A stretch of DNA of 32,000 nucleotides, from assembly GCA_025839675.1 (NCBI GenBank), contig CP104013.1, forward strand, positions 5,400,001 to 5,432,000. Reading direction: 5' to 3'. Made by a program: the position numbers and the translations under genes. This stretch comes from Candidatus Lokiarchaeum ossiferum. Lineage in GTDB: Archaea > Asgardarchaeota > Lokiarchaeia > Sigyniarchaeales > Promethearchaeaceae. Below, piece by piece: positions 3,321 through 32,000 of the stretch; position 1 is the stretch's first letter, and every line of letters starts with the position of its first letter. The notes below the pieces were generated by a model. That model was given only the letters and a program-made list of their open reading frames with translations, ran no database searches and had not been told where the DNA came from.

Positions 3321-3950
3321 TTAAATCTCGCCTTTCGGACCTGTGGTCTGTCCGCCCGATTGTAAGCGCATATAATGCCGTAGAACGGCTTCTCGTGCTG
3401 CAAACACAAACGCTCGCTTCACATTCACACCCGTAATGGCGATTGTCTCATAGATCAAAACATTGCTCAATTTGGCTGCATTTAACACTTCACGAATCTT
3501 GTCGATCGGTGTCGGGTTGGGCACATCTCGTTTGTTTGCCATGAGTACTAATGGGACTTCAGCATTACCATCCGCTCCCGCCATCACCTTTGGGCCATAA
3601 AACTTTAGCAGTTCTTTAAGTGAATACAAGTTTTCTTCCCATTGATCCGCAGAAGAGTCCCAAGTAAAAATGACCGCATCAGAGCCTTTCAAGACTGTTT
3701 TACGTTGATATTTGTGGCGTCGTTGACCGGCGACGGTGTAACATTGGAAGACAACATTCGAAACCCGTGCCACAACACGATCAAAGAATAAGGTTCTTCC
3801 TGTAGGATCGGTGATTGATTGTAATTTGCCGCTAGCTAGCCCTTCCTTCTCGTAAATCCATCCTAAAGCGCATGTCTTCCCTCCCATCGAGGGCCCCCAG
3901 AACACGATCTTAAAGACTAAAGTATTATCCGCTCTTCTACTTGGACACAT
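3321..3950 (-). CDS. mglA: MglA-type Ras-superfamily small GTPase
   Basis: 209-aa ORF. Motifs: P-loop GPSMGGKT (G1), RTLFFD (switch I), YTVAGQ (G3 in the MglA-style T-V-x-G-Q form rather than DxxGQ), NKRD (G4). By eye it is collinear with Myxococcus MglA blocks recalled from memory (KIVYYGPGLCGKTTNL / RTLFFDF / LYTVPGQ / LKGVDGVVFV / NKRDLPN / TGVGV). The CDS is much more G+C-rich than its flanks. Confidence 0.9.
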   Translation of the reverse strand: MCPSRRADNTLVFKIVFWGPSMGGKTCALGWIYEKEGLASGKLQSITDPTGRTLFFDRVVARVSNVVFQCYTVAGQRRHKYQRKTVLKGSDAVIFTWDSSADQWEENLYSLKELLKFYGPKVMAGADGNAEVPLVLMANKRDVPNPTPIDKIREVLNAAKLSNVLIYETIAITGVNVKRAFVFAAREAVLRHYMRLQSGGQTTGPKGEI

Positions 3951-9128: not shown

Positions 9129-10310
9129 ATGTTTGTTGAATTCTATTATGTGTTAAGGAATACTAAAATACCTGTGTCCATTACAGAGTTTTTATCCCTG
9201 ATGGATGCTATTTCTAAAAACTTGATCCTTAATAGTACTCAATTTTATTATATCGCACGTAGTTTATTAGTAAAAGATGAAAAATATTATGATCTATTTG
9301 ATGAAACATTCATGTATTATTTCCGAGGAGCAGACATCCCCTTAGCAATTAAAGATGACATATTTAAATGGTTAGAAAAACCAAAATCTTCTTTTTTTGA
9401 TAATCTACAACTTACTCCAGAAGAACGTGAGTTACTTGAAAAATATGACTGGGAAGAATTGAAGAAACAATTTGAAGCCAGGATTCAAGAGCAATTAGAA
9501 GAACATAATGGAGGCAATTATTGGATTGGCACTCGCGGAAAATCTCCATTTGGGTGGGGTGGGCAACATCCTGCTGGAATACGTGTAGGGGGTTGGGGTG
9601 GGATGAAATCTGCAATAAAAATAGCTCAGAAGCGGCAATTTAGGGATTATCGATCAGATCGCATTTTAGATACTCGCCAAATTCAGGTGGCTTTGAGAAA
9701 ATTACGTAGATTAAGTAAAATTGGGGCTCCCGATGAATTAAATCTTGATAAAACTATTGATGAAACATGTCGTCAAGGGGGAGAAATTGAATTTATTTGG
9801 GAGAAACGCAAGAAAAACAATTTGAAATTACTATTACTAATGGATGTGGGGGGGAGTATGGACCCATTCACTTATATGGTGGAACAATTGTTTTCGGCTG
9901 CGAATAAATCAAACCATTTTAAGAAATTCAAACATTTTTATTTTCATAATTGTATCTATAATAATCTCTATGAGAGTGCGGAATTATGGCATGATAAAAA
10001 GATTCCTCTTCCTGAAATTTTTCAAAAATTTGATAAAGATTATAGAGTTGTATTGGTGGGGGATGCTGCAATGGCCCCATATGAATTAATGATGAAATAC
10101 GGAGCGATAGATTATTATCAACAGAACGAAACAGCGGGAATCGAGTGGCTACACCGATTTAAAAAACATTTTTCTCATTCTGTATGGTTAAATCCCGAAG
10201 TGCCGGGTCCATGGATCTCTGAATCCCGTAAAATTATTTCCAAAATTTTTCCTATGTATCAATTAAGTCTTGATGGCTTGGAAGAAGCCATCTCTAAATT
10301 AATTCGTTAA
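9129..10310 (+). CDS. VWA domain protein (CoxE-like), partner of the MoxR ATPase
   Basis: 393-aa ORF. MIDAS-type motif LLLLMDVGGSMD. A Gly/Trp-rich segment (GTRGKSPFGWGGQHPAGIRVGGWGG ... RQFRDYR) is typical of CoxE-like VWA proteins (recalled). The MoxR-VWA gene pairing is conserved. Confidence 0.8.
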   Translation: MFVEFYYVLRNTKIPVSITEFLSLMDAISKNLILNSTQFYYIARSLLVKDEKYYDLFDETFMYYFRGADIPLAIKDDIFKWLEKPKSSFFDNLQLTPEERELLEKYDWEELKKQFEARIQEQLEEHNGGNYWIGTRGKSPFGWGGQHPAGIRVGGWGGMKSAIKIAQKRQFRDYRSDRILDTRQIQVALRKLRRLSKIGAPDELNLDKTIDETCRQGGEIEFIWEKRKKNNLKLLLLMDVGGSMDPFTYMVEQLFSAANKSNHFKKFKHFYFHNCIYNNLYESAELWHDKKIPLPEIFQKFDKDYRVVLVGDAAMAPYELMMKYGAIDYYQQNETAGIEWLHRFKKHFSHSVWLNPEVPGPWISESRKIISKIFPMYQLSLDGLEEAISKLIR

Positions 10311-12190: not shown

Positions 12191-13039
12191 TTATTCCACT
12201 CCAAACCAAGCAGTGAATTTTTGGGTCCATGCCTTCCAGGATGTTAAAAAGGTTTGAAAATTATGTTCCATGAGGGAGTAATAAGTTATTTTTCCATTTT
12301 TTTTTCCCTTAATGAGACCTTTCTGTTCCAATCGGCGGATATGATGATATAATGTGGGTTGGGCTTTTTGCAAAATTATTTCAAGTTCTAAGATGGAATG
12401 TGCTTTCAAGCGAAGACAATCTAAAATCAAAAATCTATCAGTATTACTAAATTCTTCAAGCATTTCCATTAAAAAATTCTCATTTTCTTGAATATCTGGT
12501 GTAGTAGTTAAACTTGAAATAACATTCTCTTCTGAATTTTCTTGATTTTGTGTTTTTGAATTTGAATTTAAATGAGCTTTTTCTAATTCTTTTTTCACAC
12601 TGTTAATTTCCTGCAAGAATAATTTTTCTTTTTCTTGTTCCATTTGTCTTTTATTAAAAACAATATCAATGGTGGTTAAAATTTCATTTTCTTCATATGG
12701 TTTAATAATATAACCATAGGGATTAGCCTTTTTTGCTTCTTTTAGCGTGGTTTTATCGGCATATGCTGTCAAAAAAATAATAGGTATTTTGAAATAAGAT
12801 TGAATTACAACTGCTGCCTCTGTTCCGGTCATATTTCCTTGCAAATTAATGTCCATCAAGACCATATCTGGTTTTTGTTTAGATGCGACATCAATTGCAT
12901 CTAAGCCATTATTAACAATTCCAATTATGGTATATCCTTCAGCTTCTAATATTTCTTTGACATCTTCTGCTGGAATTGGTTCATCTTCAACAATTAATAT
13001 TTTTTGATTCAATCTATTCTTTCCTCCATTAGATTTCAT
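12191..13039 (-). CDS. Response regulator: REC domain fused to C-terminal ArsR-type winged HTH
   Basis: 282-aa ORF. REC motifs: KILIVEDE, phospho-acceptor context [23 protein letters not shown] low-complexity/coiled linker follows. The C-terminus [11 protein letters not shown]...[40 protein letters not shown] is ArsR/SmtB-like. The start overlaps the kinase stop by 11 nt. Confidence 0.85.
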
Positions 13040-15326
13040 TTACCTTAAATAAAATTTGTACTTTTGTTCCTTTTTCATTTAAAATGTTATAGGTTCCATT
13101 TAATTGGGCTGATAACATCGAAACTAATCTCAAACCCAAAGTTTTGGATGAAGTTAGATCCAAATCTTTCGGAACTCCTATTCCATTATCCATAACAGTA
13201 AGAACTACTTGGTTATTGTGTTTTTTTAATGAAATTTTCAATGTTTTTTTACCAATTCCTTTTGGAAATGCATATTTTAAAGCATTTGAAACTAATTCGT
13301 TAAGAATGAGTGCTAATGGAATCGCATCATTGATATCAATAGAAATTTCATCAATATCAAATATCGTGTGGATTTCAGAAACATTTTTTCGATAAGATCG
13401 AATCAAATTACCGACTAAAGATCGAATATATCGATTATAATTTATTTTCGCATAATTTTCAGTTTGATACAAGATTTCATGGATTAGTGACATTGATTTA
13501 ATTCGATTTTTACTATCTTCAAAAAATTCTTTGATTTTTGAGTCTTTTATATTTCGTGTTTGAAGATTAAATAAACTAATAATAATTTGGAGATTGTTCT
13601 TGACTCTATGATGTATTTCTTTCAATAGAATATCCTTCTCAGAAAGTGATTCTTTAAGTTCTAAGTCTGCCTTGACAGACTTGATTATCATTCCTAATTC
13701 TTCTCCAAGGGAAAGAAGGAACTCCATTTCTGGATTAGAAAATTCAATGGAGCTCTCTTTAATTAATATTAAAATTCCAATCTCTTTATTCATGGATAAA
13801 ATGGGTACAAATGCTATTGCTCCTATTGTTGAATCCAGTTTTAATTGTGGAATGTAAAATTGAATATCATTAATGAAAGTTGGGCAAATATCAACAATTT
13901 CGAATTGATTTTTGCATATTTCTTCTATCAATGTTTTTGACATGTTGGATTGGGCAACTAGTAATCCATCTTTTAAGGCTTCTTCAAAAACAATGATGCC
14001 CCCTGCGTTATAATCCCCTATTAGAAAACTTGACTGCAGTAAGTGCATGAAATAGTCTTCAAGAGTGTTTCCTTCAAATTTCTTTTTATATATTTCATTT
14101 AAAAATTCTAGACGTTTAGAACGAGTTGTTAATACATCTTTTGCTTCCTTTATTTCCGTAATATCTATCATTACTACGGTTTTAGAACGTTTTCCCAATA
14201 GACTAAAATTGGGAGTTATAATAACATGATACCAACGATTATTCCGAGGGTTAAATTTTTCTCCTTCCATTTCCATCTTTTCTTGAAACAATTTTTCGTT
14301 TTGACACCAAGGGCAGCGCTGATCTAAACCATAAATAGCAGTAAAACATTTTGTACCGATAGGATTTGTGTTATGTTTCCGAATTGCTTCAGCGTTAGCG
14401 TACTCCACAATATGATCTTCAGAACAAGTATATATTTCCCCTCCAAAAGTCTCAATTATACGTTTATATTTATGTTCTGTTTGATCCAATACATTTTGTA
14501 GAGATTTTTTCTTAGTTTCATCTGATATAACAAAAACCACATTTTCATAATTGAACATCTTCTTTTCTGAGATCATCCAATTAATTATGAAATAATTGAT
14601 TTTTTTTTCTTTATCCTTAAAAATTAATTTAAATTCTCCCTTCTTGTGATTTTGGATTATATCAAATAGGAAAGGGTATAACTGGACTTGAATCTCATTG
14701 ATTAAACTTTCACTAAATCGCGGGATTAATTGTTTTGGGTGTGTTATATGAAATTTTTGGGCCAATTTTTGGTTAAATTGTAAAATTTTAACCTTCATTA
14801 AAGCCCTTTTGAGTTTTTCAGGTTGGAATGTGAAGAATTTGATAAATTCTGCTTTTGATATCAAGTTAAACTTGGAGAGATATTGATAAGTTTTCTGAAA
14901 ATCCGCAGAAAGAATTTTCATTGGAATATCATCAATATTAATCTGAATTTTTGGGGCATTTTCATTTGATGAAACAACATTAGATGAGTCTTCAATCAAT
15001 TTATTCTCTATCAGATGAAAAATTCTGGCTTTTTCTTTAAATTCAGAAACAATTCTAAAATTAAAATGGATATATTTGTGCTCTTCCTTCCTTTGTAACC
15101 GACATTTGATAAAATCAAGTGGAAAATTGTTTTTCACTTTTTCTAAATTCTTTTTAAAATTCGCTAGATCATTAATATGAATAAAATCAAAGAGTTTTTG
15201 CCCTATAAGATCTTTTTTAGTATATCCTATTTTGCGAAGCAACGCTTTATTGCAGAATTTAATTCTCTTATTGGCATCAATGCTTATGGATGCTTCGATC
15301 AAATTTTCAAAAATTACTTGGTTCAT
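13029..15326 (-). CDS. Sensor histidine kinase, PAS-PAS-GAF-HisKA_2-HATPase_c, cytoplasmic
   Basis: 765-aa ORF. H-box [22 protein letters not shown] (HisKA_2 type), N-box [14 protein letters not shown]1 DNGIGVP, G2 GLRLV. N-terminal PAS-like segments and a GAF-like segment ([30 protein letters not shown]). No obvious TM helices. There is a 4-nt ATGA overlap with the upstream arsR-like gene. Confidence 0.9.
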
Positions 15327-15769
15327 GCAGACAATTCACCAAACCAATTTGATGCCTCATCAATCCATTTTGTTAGTATATTTGCCATATCTTCAAATTT
15401 TAGTCGATTTAATGAATAATAAGTATATTTTCCTTTTTTTTCTCCTTGTATTATTCCATCTTGTACCAACATTTTTAATTGATGACTGACTGCAGGTTGT
15501 TTCTTATTCAATTTATCTTGCAAATCACTATTTGATTGTTTTTTTTGCCCCAATAATTCAACCATTTTAAACCTATCAACTTTATTTCCAATACTATTCA
15601 AAAAAGAAACCATGAATTGCTTTTCTTCATTGTGATCAAAATCAGACCTAATTTTTATTAGTTGTTCATAAGCAATTTCCGGATTAGGGTGATTTTCTTG
15701 TCTCAAATCTTTTAATATCTCTTCTTTTGTCCGTAAATTTTTTTTATTTTTAATAGATTTGATATCCAT
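15323..15769 (-). CDS. ArsR-family winged-HTH transcription regulator (first gene of the kinase operon)
   Basis: 148-aa [57 protein letters not shown] is an ArsR/SmtB HTH. The C-terminal W...WFG tail is shared with the REC::ArsR proteins. Confidence 0.8.
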
Positions 15770-22507: not shown

Positions 22508-23470
22508 TCATTTCTTTTTTGGTAATGCACGTTTATTTGTTTTTTCATGGAAATATTGAACATAATTGGATCCCATAACTAAGGTCAATTGGGGATGATA
22601 TTCTGGATTTCGAGCTTGAATCCACCTAAGTGCATGTTTTAGAGTCCAAATTAAATTGAAATTATCTTTTCCCAATTCTTTTTTTGTTTTTGATGCCAAA
22701 TCATCTGAAATTAGTATATTTGCTTCTTTTATCCATTCGTTCGCTAATTCAAGAATCTTTTCTGGGATATATTTACTTAAATCTTTCAAATTATTGCCAG
22801 TTGCTTTTCTTACATAAATATTTTCATCATGATTTAGATTTTTGAGTATTGTTATCATATCTTGATTTTCTGAAGGATCTCTTAACCATTTAAGGTCTGC
22901 CGAAGCTCGTAAGCTTTCTACAGCTAAACGACGCAGATTGTGCTCAGAAGAATGGGTTAACTCCAATAATGTACGTAATGTATCATTCTTTCGATATTTT
23001 AATCCTATTCTTATTGGATAACAACTAACTTCGCGTATTTCCCATGTTGAGTGGTTTGCCCATTTTTTCACAATATTATAAACCCTTTTCATGGAAGTGG
23101 TTTCAAACTTGATCAATTGTCCAAGAAAACAAAGGCCTAAAAATATAACAAAAGTATTCTGTTTTTCTTCAGCGATTTTCAATAATTGCTGAATAAAGTT
23201 CAAAATTTTGGGTATGTTTTTCTCAATATTTGGAAAGAAAGTCCCGAGATTTTTTTGCGTAATTAACCCCTCTGCCATGGAAACGGTGATATAATATTTT
23301 CCTTTTCCTACACGCTCTTTTTCAGGAATTATTGAATATTCATCTTGTAAAAACTGATTAATTAATTCATACTTGTGAGTGTTTATCTCCATATTATTCC
23401 AGATCGTGAATTTTCTCCAGAATACGAGAGTACGTTCTTTGATCTTAGATTTTGAGCTAATAGAAACCAT
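22508..23470 (-). CDS. HEAT-like repeat protein (DNA-alkylation-repair/AlkD-like family, tentative)
   Basis: 320-aa all-helical ORF. Repeats such as WEIREVSCYPIRIGL, HNLRRLAVESLR and IYVRKATGNNLKDLSK resemble the HEAT-like repeats of the DNA_alkylation family. An alternative start at ATG 23392 (MEINTHKYE) is possible. Confidence 0.45.
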   Translation of the reverse strand: MVSISSKSKIKERTLVFWRKFTIWNNMEINTHKYELINQFLQDEYSIIPEKERVGKGKYYITVSMAEGLITQKNLGTFFPNIEKNIPKILNFIQQLLKIAEEKQNTFVIFLGLCFLGQLIKFETTSMKRVYNIVKKWANHSTWEIREVSCYPIRIGLKYRKNDTLRTLLELTHSSEHNLRRLAVESLRASADLKWLRDPSENQDMITILKNLNHDENIYVRKATGNNLKDLSKYIPEKILELANEWIKEANILISDDLASKTKKELGKDNFNLIWTLKHALRWIQARNPEYHPQLTLVMGSNYVQYFHEKTNKRALPKKK

Positions 23471-23509: not shown

Positions 23510-25048
23510 TTAGATTTTTTCAAGAGTCATTCCTCCCAAAATCTGGGGTAAATGCGCATTATAATATTCAACGGCCTTTTTTAGACGGTGTTCACTATCG
23601 GAATAAATTTTAAAGATAACTTCTCCTTTTTCCGTATTTTGACCGATTTTTCGGAGTATTTCGATTCCTGCCTTTTTGGCTGCTGGACATCCTGCAATCT
23701 TTGCAATGCGATTAATATGCTCATTTTCTACTGAAGTAATAAATCCATCAAAAGACGCTTTCATTTCTGCCACAAATGGTCCCACTTCAATATTTTTAGG
23801 CAAAATGTCTGGGTTTCCTCCTTGAGCTTTTATCATTCGTTTCATAGCTGTATAAGCTTGTCCAGAATTAAGGATCTCTAAGGCGAGATCTTTTCCTTGA
23901 CCTTCTTGTGCTTTTCCTGCCATTTCTAAAAGAATTCCTGCAAGTTCACACGATTTATTTCGAAGACTAGATGGTCCTTCTAATGGATTAATAAGAAGGT
24001 TCATCGCTTCTCGAGCTTCCAAAGCAGGTCCTACAGCATGACCAATCGGTTGAGATGCATTTGTTAAGAGACAAACGGTTTGAATTCCAACCTTTTGGGC
24101 AATATCTTTAAATCTGATAGCGTATTTCTTACCATCTTCTAAGGTGGGAAACTTGGTTCCTTTTCCACAAGGAATGTCAAGTACTAATTTTTTTACACCC
24201 ATTGACATCTTTTTACAAATAATTGATGCTATCATTAGCGGAAACGGATCCATGGTCAGTGGTTTTTCTATTCGTATTAATGCATTATCAGCAGGCGCTG
24301 AATCCAGAGCACCTCCCCACAAAATACCACATTTTTCCGTTTTTAAAATTTCCAATACTTTTTCTTTGGAAAATGCAACAGGTGCTAGTACTTCAAATGA
24401 ATCTGCTGTGCCAGAAGGTGATGTAATTGCACGGGTTGATGTTTTTGGAATAAATAATCCCGCAGCTGCAATTATTGGGACAATAATTAATGTAACTTTA
24501 TTTCCTGGAACTCCACCTGTTGAATGTTTATCATAAACCTCTGATCCAAAATCTAAAACTTCTCCTGAGTGGGCCATGGCATTAGTAAGATCTACAACTT
24601 CCCGATCAGTAGCCCCTCGGACTTCCAAACCAATAATGAATGATGCTTTTTCAATGTCGAGTAATCGCTCATGAGTACAATCATTGATGATATCTTGAAT
24701 TTCTTGAGTGCTTAGTTCTTTTCCTTTTACTTTTGCCTTAATAGCCAAGAAAGAATTAGGTTTTGAAGAGAGTTGAACATCTATTCCCTTATAATCATTA
24801 GAGAGCTTCAATTTCTCATAAACTTCGTCATATAAACCCATTGTCCCACGCGATAACATTTTTTCTCCTGTTGCAATATCAACAACTGCAATGATACCTG
24901 GTTCTAATTTAGTTCCATCGGTTTTATATGGGATTAATCTGACACGATCTCCTGGTTTTGCTCCCAATTCAAATGCATCTTCATCGTCTAAGACTATTAT
25001 CTTTACTGCTCCACTGGATATGCCTAGTTTTCTAAACTTGAATTTCAT
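23510..25048 (-). CDS. deoA: AMP phosphorylase (archaeal DeoA-type, thymidine-phosphorylase family with N-terminal extension), copy 1
   Basis: 512-aa ORF. Nucleoside-phosphorylase-II signature DKHSTGGVPGNK and TSPSGTADS. An ~85-aa N-terminal extra domain and a ~500-aa length are typical of archaeal AMP phosphorylases rather than ~440-aa bacterial thymidine phosphorylases. Confidence 0.85.
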   Translation of the reverse strand: MKFKFRKLGISSGAVKIIVLDDEDAFELGAKPGDRVRLIPYKTDGTKLEPGIIAVVDIATGEKMLSRGTMGLYDEVYEKLKLSNDYKGIDVQLSSKPNSFLAIKAKVKGKELSTQEIQDIINDCTHERLLDIEKASFIIGLEVRGATDREVVDLTNAMAHSGEVLDFGSEVYDKHSTGGVPGNKVTLIIVPIIAAAGLFIPKTSTRAITSPSGTADSFEVLAPVAFSKEKVLEILKTEKCGILWGGALDSAPADNALIRIEKPLTMDPFPLMIASIICKKMSMGVKKLVLDIPCGKGTKFPTLEDGKKYAIRFKDIAQKVGIQTVCLLTNASQPIGHAVGPALEAREAMNLLINPLEGPSSLRNKSCELAGILLEMAGKAQEGQGKDLALEILNSGQAYTAMKRMIKAQGGNPDILPKNIEVGPFVAEMKASFDGFITSVENEHINRIAKIAGCPAAKKAGIEILRKIGQNTEKGEVIFKIYSDSEHRLKKAVEYYNAHLPQILGGMTLEKI

Positions 25049-25173: not shown

Positions 25174-26712
25174 TTAGATTTTCTCGATGGTCATGCTTGC
25201 AAAATTGAAAACTGGATGGGAATTATAATATTCCACTGCTTTTTTCAGCTGAGAATCTGTTGGGGCATAAATCTTCAAGATAGTATCTCCAAGTTGAACT
25301 TTATGTCCAATTTTGTGTTCAATTTCTATGCCTGCTGATTTTGAAGCAGGGCATCCTGCAATTTTAGCAATGCTGTTAATGTGTCTATTATTAACTTCTG
25401 ATATTATTCCTTGTATATCTGCTTTCATTTCTGCAATATAAGGCCCTACGGTTATATCCTCTGGAAGAATATCGGGAAAACCTCCTTGAGTACGAATAAG
25501 TTGTTTCATTTCATCATATGCTTTTCCCGATTTAAGAATATCCGTTGCATATTCTTTACCCTTGCCTTCTGGAGCTTTTCCTGCCATTTCTAGAAGTGCT
25601 CCTGCTAAATCTGTTGATTTGTTTAAAAGGCTTGACGGTCCTACAGATGGATCAATAAGTAAGCGCAAAGCTTCTCTTGCTTCTAATGCTGGTCCTACAG
25701 CATGACCAATGGGTTGTGATGCAGAAGTTAGCAAACATGTGCACTCAATTCCAACACGGGCTGCAATTTCTTTAAATTGTCGAGCAAATTTCCGACCAAT
25801 TTCTACCGTCGGAAATTTAGTTCCTGGTCCTACAGGAATATCCATCGTCAAAATTTTTACGCCCATACTTAATTTTTTGGCCAAAATAGATGCAATCATT
25901 ATCGGTAATGGGTCGATATTAAGTGATTTCTCAATCTTTATAAAAATATCCGCAGCAGGGGCTGATTTCATGGCTCCAGCCCAAAATATTCCCGCTTTTT
26001 TAGATTCCAAAATATTTAAGATTTCTTCTTTGGTGAATGAAACGGATGCAAGTACTTCCATGCTATCGGCTGTTCCAGATGGGGAAGTTATTGCCCTTGT
26101 TGATGTTTTTGGGATCAGTAAGCCTGCAGATGCTATTATGGGGACTATAATTAATGTGATTTTATTTCCAGGAACTCCTCCCGTACTGTGTTTATCATAA
26201 ACATTTGGTCCTAAATCAAGAATATCTCCAGAATGGGTAAAAGCATAGGTAAAATCTACAATTTCGTTTTCAGTTAATCCATGAATTTCAACGCCAGTTA
26301 TAAAAGAAGCTAACTCTATTCCCAACAACCTTTCATCCACACAATCATTGACAATTCCCAATATCTCTTGAGTCGAAAGTTCTTTTCCTTTGATTTTTTT
26401 TCGAATTGCGGCATATGATTTGGGTTTTGAGGATAAAAAGATTTCAATATTCTTATCATCTTCCCCTAAAGCTAATTTATCTTTTACTTCGTCATATACA
26501 CCTACTTCTCCCGGTTCCACAATTCCAGAACCAGTCGCTAGATCTACAATCGCAATTATTCCTGGTTCTATCAATGTCCCATCTAAATTCTTTTTAAAAA
26601 TTCTTACTCGACTTCCCGGTTTAGCATTAATTTTGAAAGCATCTTCATCATCTAAAATGATTATGTTAATTCCACCAGATGCTAACCCTAGTTTTTTTTT
26701 CCTTAATTGCAA
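25174..26712 (-). CDS. deoA: AMP phosphorylase paralog, copy 2 (apparent TTG start)
   Basis: 512-aa ORF that aligns without gaps to copy 1 and has the same DKHSTGGVPGNK / TSPSGTADS core. The aligned N-terminus begins at TTG 26710-26712, and there is no in-frame ATG nearby. Confidence 0.85.
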   Translation of the reverse strand: MQLRKKKLGLASGGINIIILDDEDAFKINAKPGSRVRIFKKNLDGTLIEPGIIAIVDLATGSGIVEPGEVGVYDEVKDKLALGEDDKNIEIFLSSKPKSYAAIRKKIKGKELSTQEILGIVNDCVDERLLGIELASFITGVEIHGLTENEIVDFTYAFTHSGDILDLGPNVYDKHSTGGVPGNKITLIIVPIIASAGLLIPKTSTRAITSPSGTADSMEVLASVSFTKEEILNILESKKAGIFWAGAMKSAPAADIFIKIEKSLNIDPLPIMIASILAKKLSMGVKILTMDIPVGPGTKFPTVEIGRKFARQFKEIAARVGIECTCLLTSASQPIGHAVGPALEAREALRLLIDPSVGPSSLLNKSTDLAGALLEMAGKAPEGKGKEYATDILKSGKAYDEMKQLIRTQGGFPDILPEDITVGPYIAEMKADIQGIISEVNNRHINSIAKIAGCPASKSAGIEIEHKIGHKVQLGDTILKIYAPTDSQLKKAVEYYNSHPVFNFASMTIEKI

Positions 26713-29484: not shown

Positions 29485-30291
29485 CTAAGACAATGGAAAG
29501 AGGGACAACCAGAATCGCCAATTTTCTAAAAATTTCAAGATTTCGGTTTTTGCAAGAGAATAATAGGTAAAACGCCCTTTCTTCCACCCTTTGATTAATC
29601 CTAAATGTTCTAAGATCTGAAGATTGTGGGATGTGGCTGATCGAGATTTTTCAATCAGATTTTGGATCTCAGTTAATTTTAAAGGACGATCTTTCAGAAC
29701 TGTCATAATTAGAAATCGATCTGCATTGGCTAAAGCACTTAAACAACCAATCATAAAGTCTTTAAAATGTTGGTCTTCACTCAAAGGTTGCTTTTCTTCA
29801 CCGCCTTGATTCTGAATTTCATTATTGTTGGTTGGTTGGGAAAAATTAATCAATTCCGTTTGTGTAATGTCATGAATTTGCATTAATTTCTTTCGAATTT
29901 CTTCTTTAATTTTGGAATTATATAATAATGTTTCGATATTCGGTCTTAAATCATTAATTCCTTTGACTGGTTTAATAATATAGCCAAACGGCTCCCCAAG
30001 TTTAGCGGATTCAAGAGTTTTCATATCTTCTAAAGCTGTAACAAATACTATGGGTGTATGATATTTTGTAGAAATTTCTTTAGCAGCATCGATTCCATTA
30101 ATACTACCATCAAGTATAATATCCATTAAAATTAAATCCACTTCATTAACATTTTCGCGCATAAAGCTTAGGGCTTCTTCTCCAGATGAAACAGTAGCGA
30201 CAGGATTGTACTTAGCTTTTTTCAGTAAAGATTCCAAAGCTAATGATGTAAGGCCTTCATCTTCCACAATTAAGATATTTTCATTAACCAT
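29485..30291 (-). CDS. Response regulator: REC domain fused to ArsR-type winged HTH (paralog of 12191-13039)
   Basis: The start is trimmed to ATG 30291 (MVNENILIVEDE); the track's extension to 30378 runs into the structured vhuD 3' UTR. REC motifs: LILMDIIL, IVFVTAL, YIIKP. C-terminal HTH: NADRFLIMTVL...LTEIQNLIEKSRSATSHNLQILEHLGLIKGWKKGRFTYYSL. Confidence 0.85.
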   Translation of the reverse strand: MVNENILIVEDEGLTSLALESLLKKAKYNPVATVSSGEEALSFMRENVNEVDLILMDIILDGSINGIDAAKEISTKYHTPIVFVTALEDMKTLESAKLGEPFGYIIKPVKGINDLRPNIETLLYNSKIKEEIRKKLMQIHDITQTELINFSQPTNNNEIQNQGGEEKQPLSEDQHFKDFMIGCLSALANADRFLIMTVLKDRPLKLTEIQNLIEKSRSATSHNLQILEHLGLIKGWKKGRFTYYSLAKTEILKFLENWRFWLSLFPLS

Positions 30292-30375
30292 TATGTGAAG
30301 ATAGGAGATTTTTCCTTTTAATTGTTTAGAAGGAATAAAAAAGAAAATTATTGATAAATTATTTTGGTTCAATTG

Positions 30376-30453
30376 CATATATGGGATACATCCTCGCAGG
30401 ATTCATCCACCTTGCACTTGGTTTATAGCAAGGGTTCATCTGGGCCATATATG
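30376..30453 (-). promoter_or_regulatory. Structured 3'-UTR element downstream of vhuD: SECIS candidate
   Basis: Seen directly on the minus-strand RNA: a 9-bp clamp CAUAUAUGG/CCAUAUAUG encloses two hairpins, CCUUGC-12 nt-GCAAGG and AUCCU-GCG-AGGAU. Each hairpin is preceded by GAUGAA. The element starts 25 nt after the stop codon and is more G+C-rich than the surrounding intergenic DNA. Confidence 0.5.
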
Positions 30454-30477
30454 TCGAAGGTTTTTGTTGTATTTTCC

Positions 30478-30951
30478 TTAGACTGTTTTTTTTTTGGCTT
30501 TCTTGGCAGCAGCTTTTGCGGCAGCATCAATTTGATGCATTCTTAGTTTAGAAGGCCCTAACCGTCTGACTGTATTATCCATTTCAACTGCAAGTTGTCG
30601 GAAGCGTTCTCCTTCAGCCGCACTGATAAAGATCATTTTCAAACGATCAGGTTCTAATCCTATAGTATGCATGATAGTTTTGAGATATTGGACTAATTTT
30701 TGGGCATATTCATTGCCATTCACAAAATCACATTCTCCAATATGTCATCCACCTATGATGACTCCATCGGCTCCTTTATTAAAGGCTCGCATGACCATAT
30801 CTGCTGATACTCTTGCCGTGCACATTACTCGAACTGGTCGAATACTTGCAGGATATTGGGCTCGAATGGTTCCGGCCATATCGCAGGCGCCGTAACCTCA
30901 TTTCCAACATAAGAAAGCTATAATCCGTGGTTCAAAATTTTCCATTTTCAT
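30478..30951 (-). CDS. vhuD: MvhD/VhuD-type hydrogenase delta subunit, selenoprotein with two in-frame UGA (Sec) codons
   Basis: Hand translation from ATG 30951 (alternative ATG 30945; GGGGGA box at 30955-30960): MKMENFEPRIIAFLCWK-U-GYGACDMAGTIRAQYPASIRPVRVMCTARVSADMVMRAFNKGADGVIIGG-U-HIGECDFVNGNEYAQKL...ISAAEGERF.... The TGAs are at 30898-30900 and 30745-30747. Both replace conserved Cys residues of the MvhD family. The track reports only the last 81 codons. Confidence 0.85.
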
Positions 30952-30963
30952 TTATCCCCCTAA

Positions 30964-32000
30964 TTATGCCTTAGATTTCTCCATAAGGGCATCTTCCAAT
31001 ATTGCGTCAATTAAATCGCCGTATTGTTCATCACGATAGTATCGAATTGATATTGCCGAACTTGGGCACACTGATGCACAAAGACCGCATCCTCGGCAGA
31101 GGATTTCATCGACAAGCGCTCCATCTTCTTGAGTTATTCGAATTGCATTATAAGGACAAGCTTCCGCACACATTCCACATCGTGAGCATTTGGCTTCATC
31201 TGGTACGGCCCGAATAAGTTTAATTCGATATTCTCCATTGGATAATAACTTACCAATAGAAGAGGCTGCACCCTTTGCTTGCATAATGGATTCTGAAATG
31301 GCTTTAGGGCCATGACATGCACCTGATAATGCAATTCCGGGAACATCGGTGTCGACAGTGTTCAATCGCTGGTGGAATTCTTTTAAGAATCCGCTCGGAT
31401 GTTTTGACAGATTTAGGGCTTTATTCAATTTTCCAAAGGTATCCGAAGGCATCATCGCTGCAGATAACACAATTAAATCAAATTCATATTCTTTAATCGT
31501 TTTATCTGGGCTTAAGGTGTCCTCAAGCACCACTATGAGATTTTGGGTCTTTGGATCTTCGCGAACACGAGCTACCTTTGAGCGTATATATTTTACTCCG
31601 TCGCGTCTGGATTGGGTATAATATTCTTCATATCCCTTTCCTGCTGCGCGAATGTCAATATAAGATACAACTACTTCAAGATCTGGATCATGTGTTTTTA
31701 CAAGCTTAGCATTTTTAATGCTAACCATACAACATACTCCACTTGAGCAGTATACATTTCTATTGACATCCCGTGAGCCAACGCATTGGACAAATAAGAC
31801 GCTTTCTGGTGGTTTTCCATCCGATGGTCTATGTAAATGGCCGACTACTGGTCCATTGGGGGCGAGCATTCGTTCAAATTCGAGTTGTGTTACTACGTTC
31901 TCGTATTTGCCATAACCTAAATATCCATCAATTGGTTTGTATTCATCCCAACCTGTTGCTACAATTATTCCTCCTACTTTCACAGAGAAGAGTGTATCTT
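30964..32000 (-). CDS. hdrA: Heterodisulfide reductase subunit A (HdrA), C-terminal ~345 codons; 5' part lies beyond the window
   Basis: The frame is open from the stop at 30964-30966 to the window end; the track's GTG at 31983 is internal, because the codons upstream of it (DTLFS) remain open. Motifs: IIVATGW, FVQCVGSRD...YCSSGVCCM, and two C-terminal ferredoxin motifs CSRCGMCAEACP and CRGCGLCASVCP. vhuD starts 12 nt downstream. Confidence 0.9.
   Translation of the reverse strand, partial: DTLFSVKVGGIIVATGWDEYKPIDGYLGYGKYENVVTQLEFERMLAPNGPVVGHLHRPSDGKPPESVLFVQCVGSRDVNRNVYCSSGVCCMVSIKNAKLVKTHDPDLEVVVSYIDIRAAGKGYEEYYTQSRRDGVKYIRSKVARVREDPKTQNLIVVLEDTLSPDKTIKEYEFDLIVLSAAMMPSDTFGKLNKALNLSKHPSGFLKEFHQRLNTVDTDVPGIALSGACHGPKAISESIMQAKGAASSIGKLLSNGEYRIKLIRAVPDEAKCSRCGMCAEACPYNAIRITQEDGALVDEILCRGCGLCASVCPSSAISIRYYRDEQYGDLIDAILEDALMEKSKA

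Follow-up and report, generated by a model that had tools for sequence, protein, structure and literature searches.

How is a gene to be read whose frame is broken by two in-frame TGA codons? This question is raised by a locus on the minus strand of a 32,000-nucleotide stretch of the Candidatus Lokiarchaeum ossiferum genome (contig CP104013.1, positions 5,400,001 to 5,432,000; subsequently designated the window). The frame follows hdrA and its product resembles MvhD/VhuD. An earlier note, made from the letters of the window, had proposed a gene that encodes selenocysteine (Sec) at both TGA codons. We are highly confident that the locus indeed represents an intact vhuD gene of the mvhD type, which forms the second cistron of an hdrA-vhuD operon and in which both UGA codons are decoded as Sec. 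The two-Sec gene of the earlier note thus stands, but the note had passed over the selenocysteine insertion sequence (SECIS) element downstream of the gene as well as the publication of such genes since 2016 (PMC4989117, PMC11227280).

Translation of the minus strand from the ATG at 30951-30949 to the TAA at 30480-30478 gives 157 codons, each of them either a sense codon or TGA, before the stop is reached. Two TGAs are the only interruptions of this frame, one as codon 18 (30900-30898), the other as codon 69 (30747-30745). For 157 random codons at 34 % G+C, approximately 11.5 stop codons are expected and the probability of encountering neither TAA nor TAG is 1.4e-4. The TAA of hdrA (30966-30964) is located on the same strand 12 nt ahead of the vhuD ATG, which establishes the genomic pairing of both genes. 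In the program-made list of open reading frames (ORFs) the vhuD region is represented by an ORF of 81 aa (30478-30723, minus strand) and an antisense ORF of 74 aa (30671-30895, plus strand). The public gene calls contain VhuD as a stub of 64 aa and HdrA as separate fragments (60, 80 and 454 aa), and mvhA, mvhG, hdrB and hdrC were not found adjoining the hdrA-vhuD operon in the public gene calls of the locus. The following features make up the operon within the window:

30478..30951, minus strand: vhuD/mvhD coding sequence of 157 codons, two of them very likely UGA-Sec codons, followed by TAA; matched by Pfam FlpD and by PDB chains.
30955..30960, minus strand: GGGGGA, a Shine-Dalgarno-like box as read from the sequence, 3 nt 5' of the vhuD ATG, with a putative function.
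30898..30900, minus strand: UGA codon 18, very likely Sec, within motif C15-W-K-U18 (CxxU); falls on a Cys/X column and is TGA in 11/11 close relatives.
30745..30747, minus strand: UGA codon 69, very likely Sec, within motif GG-U69-H-IGE-C74; falls on a Cys/X column and is TGA in close relatives.
30964..32000, minus strand: C-terminal 345 codons of hdrA (heterodisulfide reductase subunit A), cut by the window edge; no internal stop codon, Pfam matches to 4Fe-4S ferredoxin domains.

For comparison of the VhuD product with protein profiles and chains of the Protein Data Bank (PDB), Cys was substituted at both TGA positions. The product matches Pfam family FlpD (PF02662, the methyl-viologen-reducing hydrogenase delta subunit) over its entire length (positions 1-123/123, E 5.5e-45, 152.8 bits at a cut-off of 22.3), and solved MvhD/VhuD chains match at E values of 1e-32 to 1e-39. 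Codon 18 aligns with the last Cys of the FCCNW-C-SYG (CNWC) motif in chains 5odc_D, 7bkb_F and 8rvu_F, at which position the window product reads FLCWK-U-GYG. Likewise, codon 69 (GG-U-HIGEC in the window) aligns with the Cys of GG-C-H(I/L)GDC in the solved MvhD chains. Chain 9sfi_K carries X at both of these columns, i.e. FVCYQ-X-GYGAAD and VAG-X-KPNEC. The corresponding entry 9SFI is the Hdr-Vhu-Fwd complex of Methanococcus maripaludis (PMC13518236), and archaeal VhuD has been described as a protein of ~150 aa possessing two Sec residues ~50 codons apart (PMC4989117). As the literature places two Sec in VhuD, the X residues of 9sfi_K are taken as Sec. A review from 2026 also lists MvhD/VhuD (PF02662) as a two-Sec family characterized by a CxxU motif (PMC13188914).

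The conserved Cys residues of the window VhuD are C15, C44 and C74, of which C44 and C74 are invariant in the homologue alignment, and the remaining two Cys columns of the [2Fe-2S] site scaffold are occupied by U18 and U69. By homology to 5ODC, 7BKB and 9SFI, VhuD would bind a [2Fe-2S] cluster and dock on HdrA. As to the earlier note, each of its coordinates was found to be correct upon re-checking, including those of the two in-frame TGAs, the 12-nt gap and the GGGGGA box, and the gene is hidden in the ORF list by the same two ORFs as described there. The collinearity with MvhD proposed in the note is borne out by the full-length FlpD match and the solved chains, and the family motifs given in the note proved accurate, since both TGAs fall on MvhD Cys columns and on the X positions of 9sfi_K. 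The latter alignment also agrees with the classification as VhuD type on the grounds of Cys-to-Sec replacement at two sites.

It is conceivable that TGA specifies one of the standard amino acids at these sites, either following reassignment of the codon (genetic codes 4/25; Trp or Gly) or by SECIS-independent near-cognate read-through (Trp or Cys). Indeed, several seemingly full-length public homologues show W at both sites (P0022, P0023, P0024, P0031, P0034 and P0040, from loci L020-L022), and one metagenome contig, addressed below, has a true TGG at the second site. However, the DNA of the W-bearing homologues has TGA at both sites, and the loci do not yield those proteins under translation table 11. 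Therefore, W represents a gene-calling artefact that arises when short contigs are translated using a code with TGA=Trp. Within the window, TGA terminates 6/24 genes supported by Pfam, and two TGA-ended products (22508-23470 and 9129-10310) match public protein records exactly in extent. These ordinary TGA stops indicate that the code is not reassigned. Moreover, both columns carry Cys in distant homologues, but never Trp, and 9sfi_K exhibits X, i.e. Sec according to the literature, at both positions. Finally, the same organism possesses a SECIS element with covariation as well as a SelD with its own Sec codon, as detailed below. Decoding as a standard amino acid is therefore very unlikely. 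The systematic artefact of W residues and late starts can mislead alignments of selenoprotein families. Of note, other public VhuD homologues begin at MAGT..., right after the first TGA.

Homologues of the locus were retrieved from collections of genomes and metagenomes. Otherwise intact frames that retain both TGAs occur in L001, L002, L003, L009, L011, L012 and L018 (73-85 % identity), and the same is true for the more distant L020, L021 and L022 (46-65 % identity). These ten relatives are complete; an 11th one resides on a cut contig and agrees on the TGAs. The cultured Promethearchaeum syntrophicum MK-D1 is represented by its chromosome, L002, and its VhuD protein is 73 % identical to the window copy. 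In other lineages the two sites toggle independently: Freyarchaeota L006 (a chromosome) has Sec at site 1 and Cys at site 2, whereas Desulfobacula L004 and L014 (deltaproteobacterial MvhD) have Cys at site 1 and Sec (TGA) at site 2. Six further homologues carry Cys at both sites.

The frames in the relatives are also informative as to whether the locus might be a pseudogene, that is a former Cys-type mvhD killed by two independent nonsense mutations, as one could think from the fact that standard gene callers see nothing but fragments (the 81-aa ORF and the public 64-aa stub). This would be difficult to reconcile with the presence of the same two TGAs, and of no other lesion, in each of the close relatives examined (46-85 % identity; two of the species are cultured). 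Their protein divergence of 15-54 % excludes that the relatives are one contaminating sequence. Further evidence comes from substitution rates determined in comparison with eight relatives. In the segment between the TGAs the non-synonymous divergence (dN) amounts to 0.02-0.14, and dN is low in the other two segments, too. Synonymous sites of vhuD are saturated, and the ratio of dN to synonymous divergence (dS) is <= 0.2 in all three segments where computable. The most conserved part of vhuD is precisely the stretch that would be left untranslated if the first TGA were a stop codon, and such strong constraint 3' of this codon speaks decisively against a pseudogene. In addition, both TGAs are on Cys/Sec columns and a conserved SECIS follows the gene. 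Gene decay is thus extremely unlikely.

As to sequencing or assembly errors in one genome as the source of the TGAs, nothing beyond the generic possibility speaks in favor of them, and their probability is close to nil: independent relatives carry the same codons, and an independent Logan assembly from a different run (L023, SRR22273276) agrees with the window in all of the 2,000 bases compared. Eight proteins of the window are exact matches to records of L. ossiferum strain B-35 (UYP48309 to UYP48329). L023 reaches 3 kb past the window edge and comprises the full hdrA gene (L023:2034-4085, equivalent to ~30964-33015 in window numbering), which contains three in-frame TGAs at 32799, 32724 and 32346. 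The corresponding contexts in HdrA are SL-U-TTSG, AA-U-TPKT and the canonical CSI-U-ILGP, and MK-D1 has the same three sites. Taken together, the hdrA-vhuD operon comprises five UGA-Sec codons, the farthest of which is located ~2.4 kb upstream of a single SECIS element. This element begins 22 nt past the vhuD TAA in the 3' untranslated region (UTR) and is composed as follows:

30372..30455, minus strand: complete SECIS (lokiSECIS, Asgard eSECIS-like type I), supported by covariance model and covariation.
30445..30453, minus strand: helix I (lower stem), 5' arm CAUAUAUGG, pairs with 30384-30376.
30376..30384, minus strand: helix I, 3' arm CCAUAUAUG, pairs with 30453-30445.
30436..30439, minus strand: SECIS core, 5' side, AUGA; AUGA in 8/10 VhuD elements and AGGA in 2/10.
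30409..30434, minus strand: helix II and apical loop; 30434-30427 pairs with 30416-30409, and the loop AUAAACCAAG is at 30426-30417.
30406..30407, minus strand: SECIS core, 3' side, GA; GGAUG invariant in all aligned relatives.
30334..30347, minus strand: oligo-T tract UUUUCUUUUUUAUU located 3' of the SECIS, a likely archaeal transcription terminator as read from the sequence.

The lokiSECIS has been described to consist of AUGA, a stem of 9 positions, a loop of ~11 nt with an A-rich beginning and a terminal G, and a final GA (PMC4989117). For this type of SECIS, AA is also accepted in place of the 3' GA, and the terminal G of the loop often follows an A. The window and its relatives share the layout of lower stem, 5-nt internal loop, AUGA, A.G, helix II of 8 positions, loop and GA. 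In the window, the loop AUAAACCAAG measures 10 nt, has an A-rich start and ends with AG; the apical loops of the relatives measure 10-12 nt, start with (A/G)UAAAC or ACAAAC and have a final G in 9/10 cases. The upper stem of the window element comprises 9 positions, namely the A.G followed by 8 more: 6 standard pairs and two mismatches, C.U and U.U. Published models of the upper stem provide for 9 bp (Mariotti, PMC4989117) or for 7-15 bp with <=2 mismatches (Huang, PMC11227280); the window stem lies at the very limit of the latter, looser model. The 3' GA is presumed to be the partner in a kink-turn G.A/A.G quartet, the geometry of which is adopted from the literature. The next gene, encoding a response regulator, begins at window position 30291 in the public gene calls and the SECIS is thus fully intergenic.

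A covariance model built from seven elements (R1) scores the window SECIS with 89 bits (E ~1e-22) as its sole match in the window, and an independent pattern scan produced exactly one match in the window, at the same position. No SECIS was detected in the 12-nt spacer between hdrA and vhuD. The elements of L020 and L021, which were not part of the model training, were detected at E 6e-14 and 8e-10, in both cases directly after the respective vhuD gene. In a MAFFT alignment of the seven elements 13/17 pairs change on both sides, and in a model-fitted alignment of ten elements this number rises to 16/17 (helix I 8/9, helix II 8/8). Pairing is observed in 84 % of the cells as compared to <=46 % when partners are slid by 1-3 columns, and not one of the observed measures is reached in 500 shuffles. 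In the 3' UTR, RNAfold recovers the lower stem and helix II. By analogy to other archaea and eukaryotes, the SECIS would recruit EFsec loaded with Sec-tRNA(Sec) to ribosomes pausing at UGA. One eukaryote-like hairpin in the 3' UTR (30455-30372) would direct recoding of codons 18 and 69, and it is very probably used for the three UGA codons of hdrA as well. Apart from the vhuD elements proper, R1 yielded a weaker match of 26 bits in MK-D1 (L002:5436-5517), ~0.9 kb downstream of the vhuD SECIS. Its 3' half is near-identical to the vhuD SECIS, it lacks the AUGA side and no ORF lies ahead of it, so that it looks like a partial duplicate of the vhuD SECIS.

Does L. ossiferum have the means to use selenium? 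Employing the SelD sequence of MK-D1 from the supplement of Huang 2024 (PMC11227280) as query, we obtained P0159, annotated as 'Selenide, water dikinase [Candidatus Lokiarchaeum ossiferum]' and encoded on the 6,035,313-bp chromosome. The L. ossiferum selD gene (L025:9869-10989) itself has an in-frame TGA at the catalytic HG-U-KCK motif. The protein is annotated with 312 aa and is truncated at its N-terminus, the true start being located upstream. A SECIS begins 15 nt past the selD stop codon and exhibits AUGA, 9/9 pairs in helix II, an AUAAAC loop AUAAACCUUUGG and GA. Three other Lokiarchaeial SelD loci look alike with respect to the Sec codon and the SECIS. The Sec trait has been assigned to 85.9 % of sequenced Lokiarchaeia/Helarchaeales (PMC11227280), and the VhuD orthologue of MK-D1 is catalogued with X at both sites (PMC11227280 supplement). 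Of the checks recommended in the earlier note, those on Cys/Sec columns, relatives and SelD gave results in keeping with its proposal: both TGAs fall on such columns, L. ossiferum possesses a SelD gene that has a Sec codon and a SECIS of its own, and the relatives show the same two TGAs, with dN far below dS, rather than unrelated frame disruptions. Its view that two chance nonsense mutations are very unlikely is strengthened by the finding that the TGAs are shared by relatives under purifying selection, and the Sec use that it mentions for Lokiarchaeota has been published, as an HdrA-VhuD arrangement with two Sec, in PMC4989117 and PMC11227280.

Several observations weigh against Sec decoding of both codons. 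First, metagenome contig L010 (3001-3426) has TGG (Trp) at site 2 and is otherwise identical at the protein level to L003 (2632-3057), in which site 2 is TGA. The TGG could reflect variation within the population, an allele that has lost its function or a fault of the assembly. Second, helix II of the window element has only 6/8 standard pairs and is weaker than in most relatives, which reach 7-8/8 pairs. Third, no SECIS family of Rfam matches in 30000-31100 at E values up to 10; standard SECIS tools likewise failed on the Loki genes in the work of Mariotti et al. 2016 (PMC4989117). RAGATH-22 and IsrM, which emerged in the same Rfam scan, were classified as chance matches. Fourth, the minimum-free-energy structure calculated by RNAfold places the 3' GA into another hairpin, because G.A pairs cannot be modelled. 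The outer pairing with the 3' GA in the RNAfold structure is not conserved in the relatives and was rejected. Fifth, tRNA scans revealed no tRNA gene in the window, L023, L025 and L026, and none of the genes for tRNA-Sec, EFsec, PSTK and SepSecS is present within the window, L023 and L025, the rest of the chromosome not having been searched. Selenium incorporation and a full-length VhuD protein in L. ossiferum are predicted from the sequence.

As regards the chemical roles of Sec18 and Sec69, we infer these from comparison with MvhD. According to a structure paper from 2026, three conserved 'additional' Cys residues, MvhD Cys16 and HdrA Cys202/Cys205, are located between the MvhD cluster and the FAD, and MvhD His68 and Asp71 are present at the same interface (PMC13580544). 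Sec18 occupies the position of MvhD Cys16, i.e. of a non-ligand Cys between cluster and FAD. Comparison of the motifs DDCSIU and Cys202-x-x-Cys205 suggests that the canonical Sec of HdrA corresponds to Cys205. Sec site 2 is the residue directly ahead of MvhD His68 (GG-C-H position). Since only C15, C44 and C74 are conserved and Cys16 is excluded, a four-ligand cluster would need Sec69. By elimination, Sec69 is therefore probably a ligand of the [2Fe-2S] cluster.

How does the locus compare to known systems? The Lokiarchaeota HdrA-VhuD pairs (PMC4989117; PMC11227280) share with it hdrA directly upstream on the same strand separated by a very short spacer (12 nt here), a VhuD ~150 aa long whose two Sec occupy identical columns, and a multi-Sec HdrA, the Sec residues of which are at the same three sites in MK-D1 (GCA_008000775). 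A single SECIS is present downstream of vhuD only; its parts are AUGA, a stem with 9 positions, an A-rich loop of 10-11 nt whose last base is G, and GA. The window differs from the first Loki set in that its loop type starts with AUAAAC/GUAAAC rather than with the AAAAA consensus, and from the described pairs by two mismatches in helix II as well as by a near-invariant mini-hairpin. The L. ossiferum copy is absent from the catalogue of Huang 2024, the supplements of which were checked for the organism, the assembly accession and VhuD peptides.

VhuD of Methanococcales (M. voltae, M. jannaschii, M. maripaludis) belongs to the same family and agrees in length and in the positions of the Sec columns ~50 codons apart. 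The first motif is CxxU in both cases, with the first Cys of the CC pair being lost (F-V/L-C-x-x-U-GYGA), and by analogy the window VhuD would share the role of a [2Fe-2S] adaptor to HdrA. This subfamily has been known in Methanococcales since the 1990s. In contrast, Methanococcales employ a canonical archaeal SECIS (GAA_A bulge) and a separate one for hdrA, whereas the eukaryote-like element of the window is apparently common to both genes, and the host is a non-methanogenic Asgard archaeon. The Cys-type MvhD proteins (M. thermolithotrophicus 5ODC D; M. hungatei 7BKB F; ElpC 8RVU F) are collinear over the full length (E ~1e-38), and the window product retains each of C15, C44, C74, H70 and E73, the last being Asp in MvhD. 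They differ by Cys at both Sec sites and by an extra Cys (FCCNWC vs. FLCWKU in the window). Type I SECIS elements of eukaryotes resemble the window element in the location in the 3' UTR, the unpaired adenines opening the apical loop, the lower helix and the internal loop. Differences are the shorter upper helix of the window element, the missing match to Rfam SECIS models and a possible third helix on the 3' side.

The phenomenon itself is already known, from Lokiarchaeota since 2016 (PMC4989117) and across Asgard archaea since 2024 (PMC11227280). What is new is modest, namely the uncatalogued L. ossiferum copy and the broken public annotation of the operon. Such shredded gene calls can cause metabolic reconstructions to miss or misread the HdrA-MvhD module. 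This module is central to the hydrogen and electron-bifurcation metabolism proposed for Lokiarchaeia. L. ossiferum and MK-D1 are cultured, and the idea that one eukaryote-like SECIS serves five UGA codons over ~2.4 kb and two cistrons is directly testable there. [quoted passage not shown]

The possible third helix corresponds to one further feature of the element:

30390..30402, minus strand: mini-hairpin AUCCU-GCG-AGGAU (possible helix III), flanked by the 3' GA on one side and the 3' arm of helix I on the other.

In the VhuD elements the mini-hairpin is near-invariant (UCCNGCNNGGAUG; UCC-NGC-NNGGAUG), while both flanking helices covary freely; its position was examined in L001, L002, L003, L009, L011, L012, L020, L021, L022, L025, L028 and L029. 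Within the VhuD set 91 % of the cells pair, yet no change on both sides was found, i.e. there is no covariation. Folding energies are weakly better than those of shuffles (0.01-0.54). Among the SelD SECIS elements, a hairpin of unrelated sequence is seen by eye at the same place in 3/4, and the automated fold is clear in 2/4. The main text of the two SECIS papers (PMC4989117, PMC11227280) is silent on a third helix. We tentatively consider, as a rather unlikely option, that the Lokiarchaeial SECIS is a three-way junction resembling a k-junction and not a simple two-helix eukaryote-like hairpin. If so, the extra helix could dock an Asgard SECIS-binding factor as a functional counterpart of SBP2, which is not known in Asgard archaea (PMC11227280), and could also enable a single element to act on five UGA codons in two cistrons.

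Some other genes in the window also deserve mention. Two response regulators, one encoded within 12191-15769 and the other at 29485-30291 (both minus strand), share an unusual architecture composed of a receiver and an ArsR-type helix-turn-helix (HTH) domain. The former is part of an operon together with a PAS/HisKA_2 histidine kinase and another protein with ArsR-type HTH, and the gene of the latter immediately follows the hdrA-vhuD SECIS on its downstream side. The window also encodes an Arf/Ras-family small GTPase (3321-3950, minus strand), a kind of protein characteristic of the eukaryote-like signature proteins found in Asgard archaea. Lastly, two tandem paralogues of AMP phosphorylase (Glycos_transf_3 family), each comprising 512 aa, adjoin one another at 23510-25048 and 25174-26712 (minus strand).

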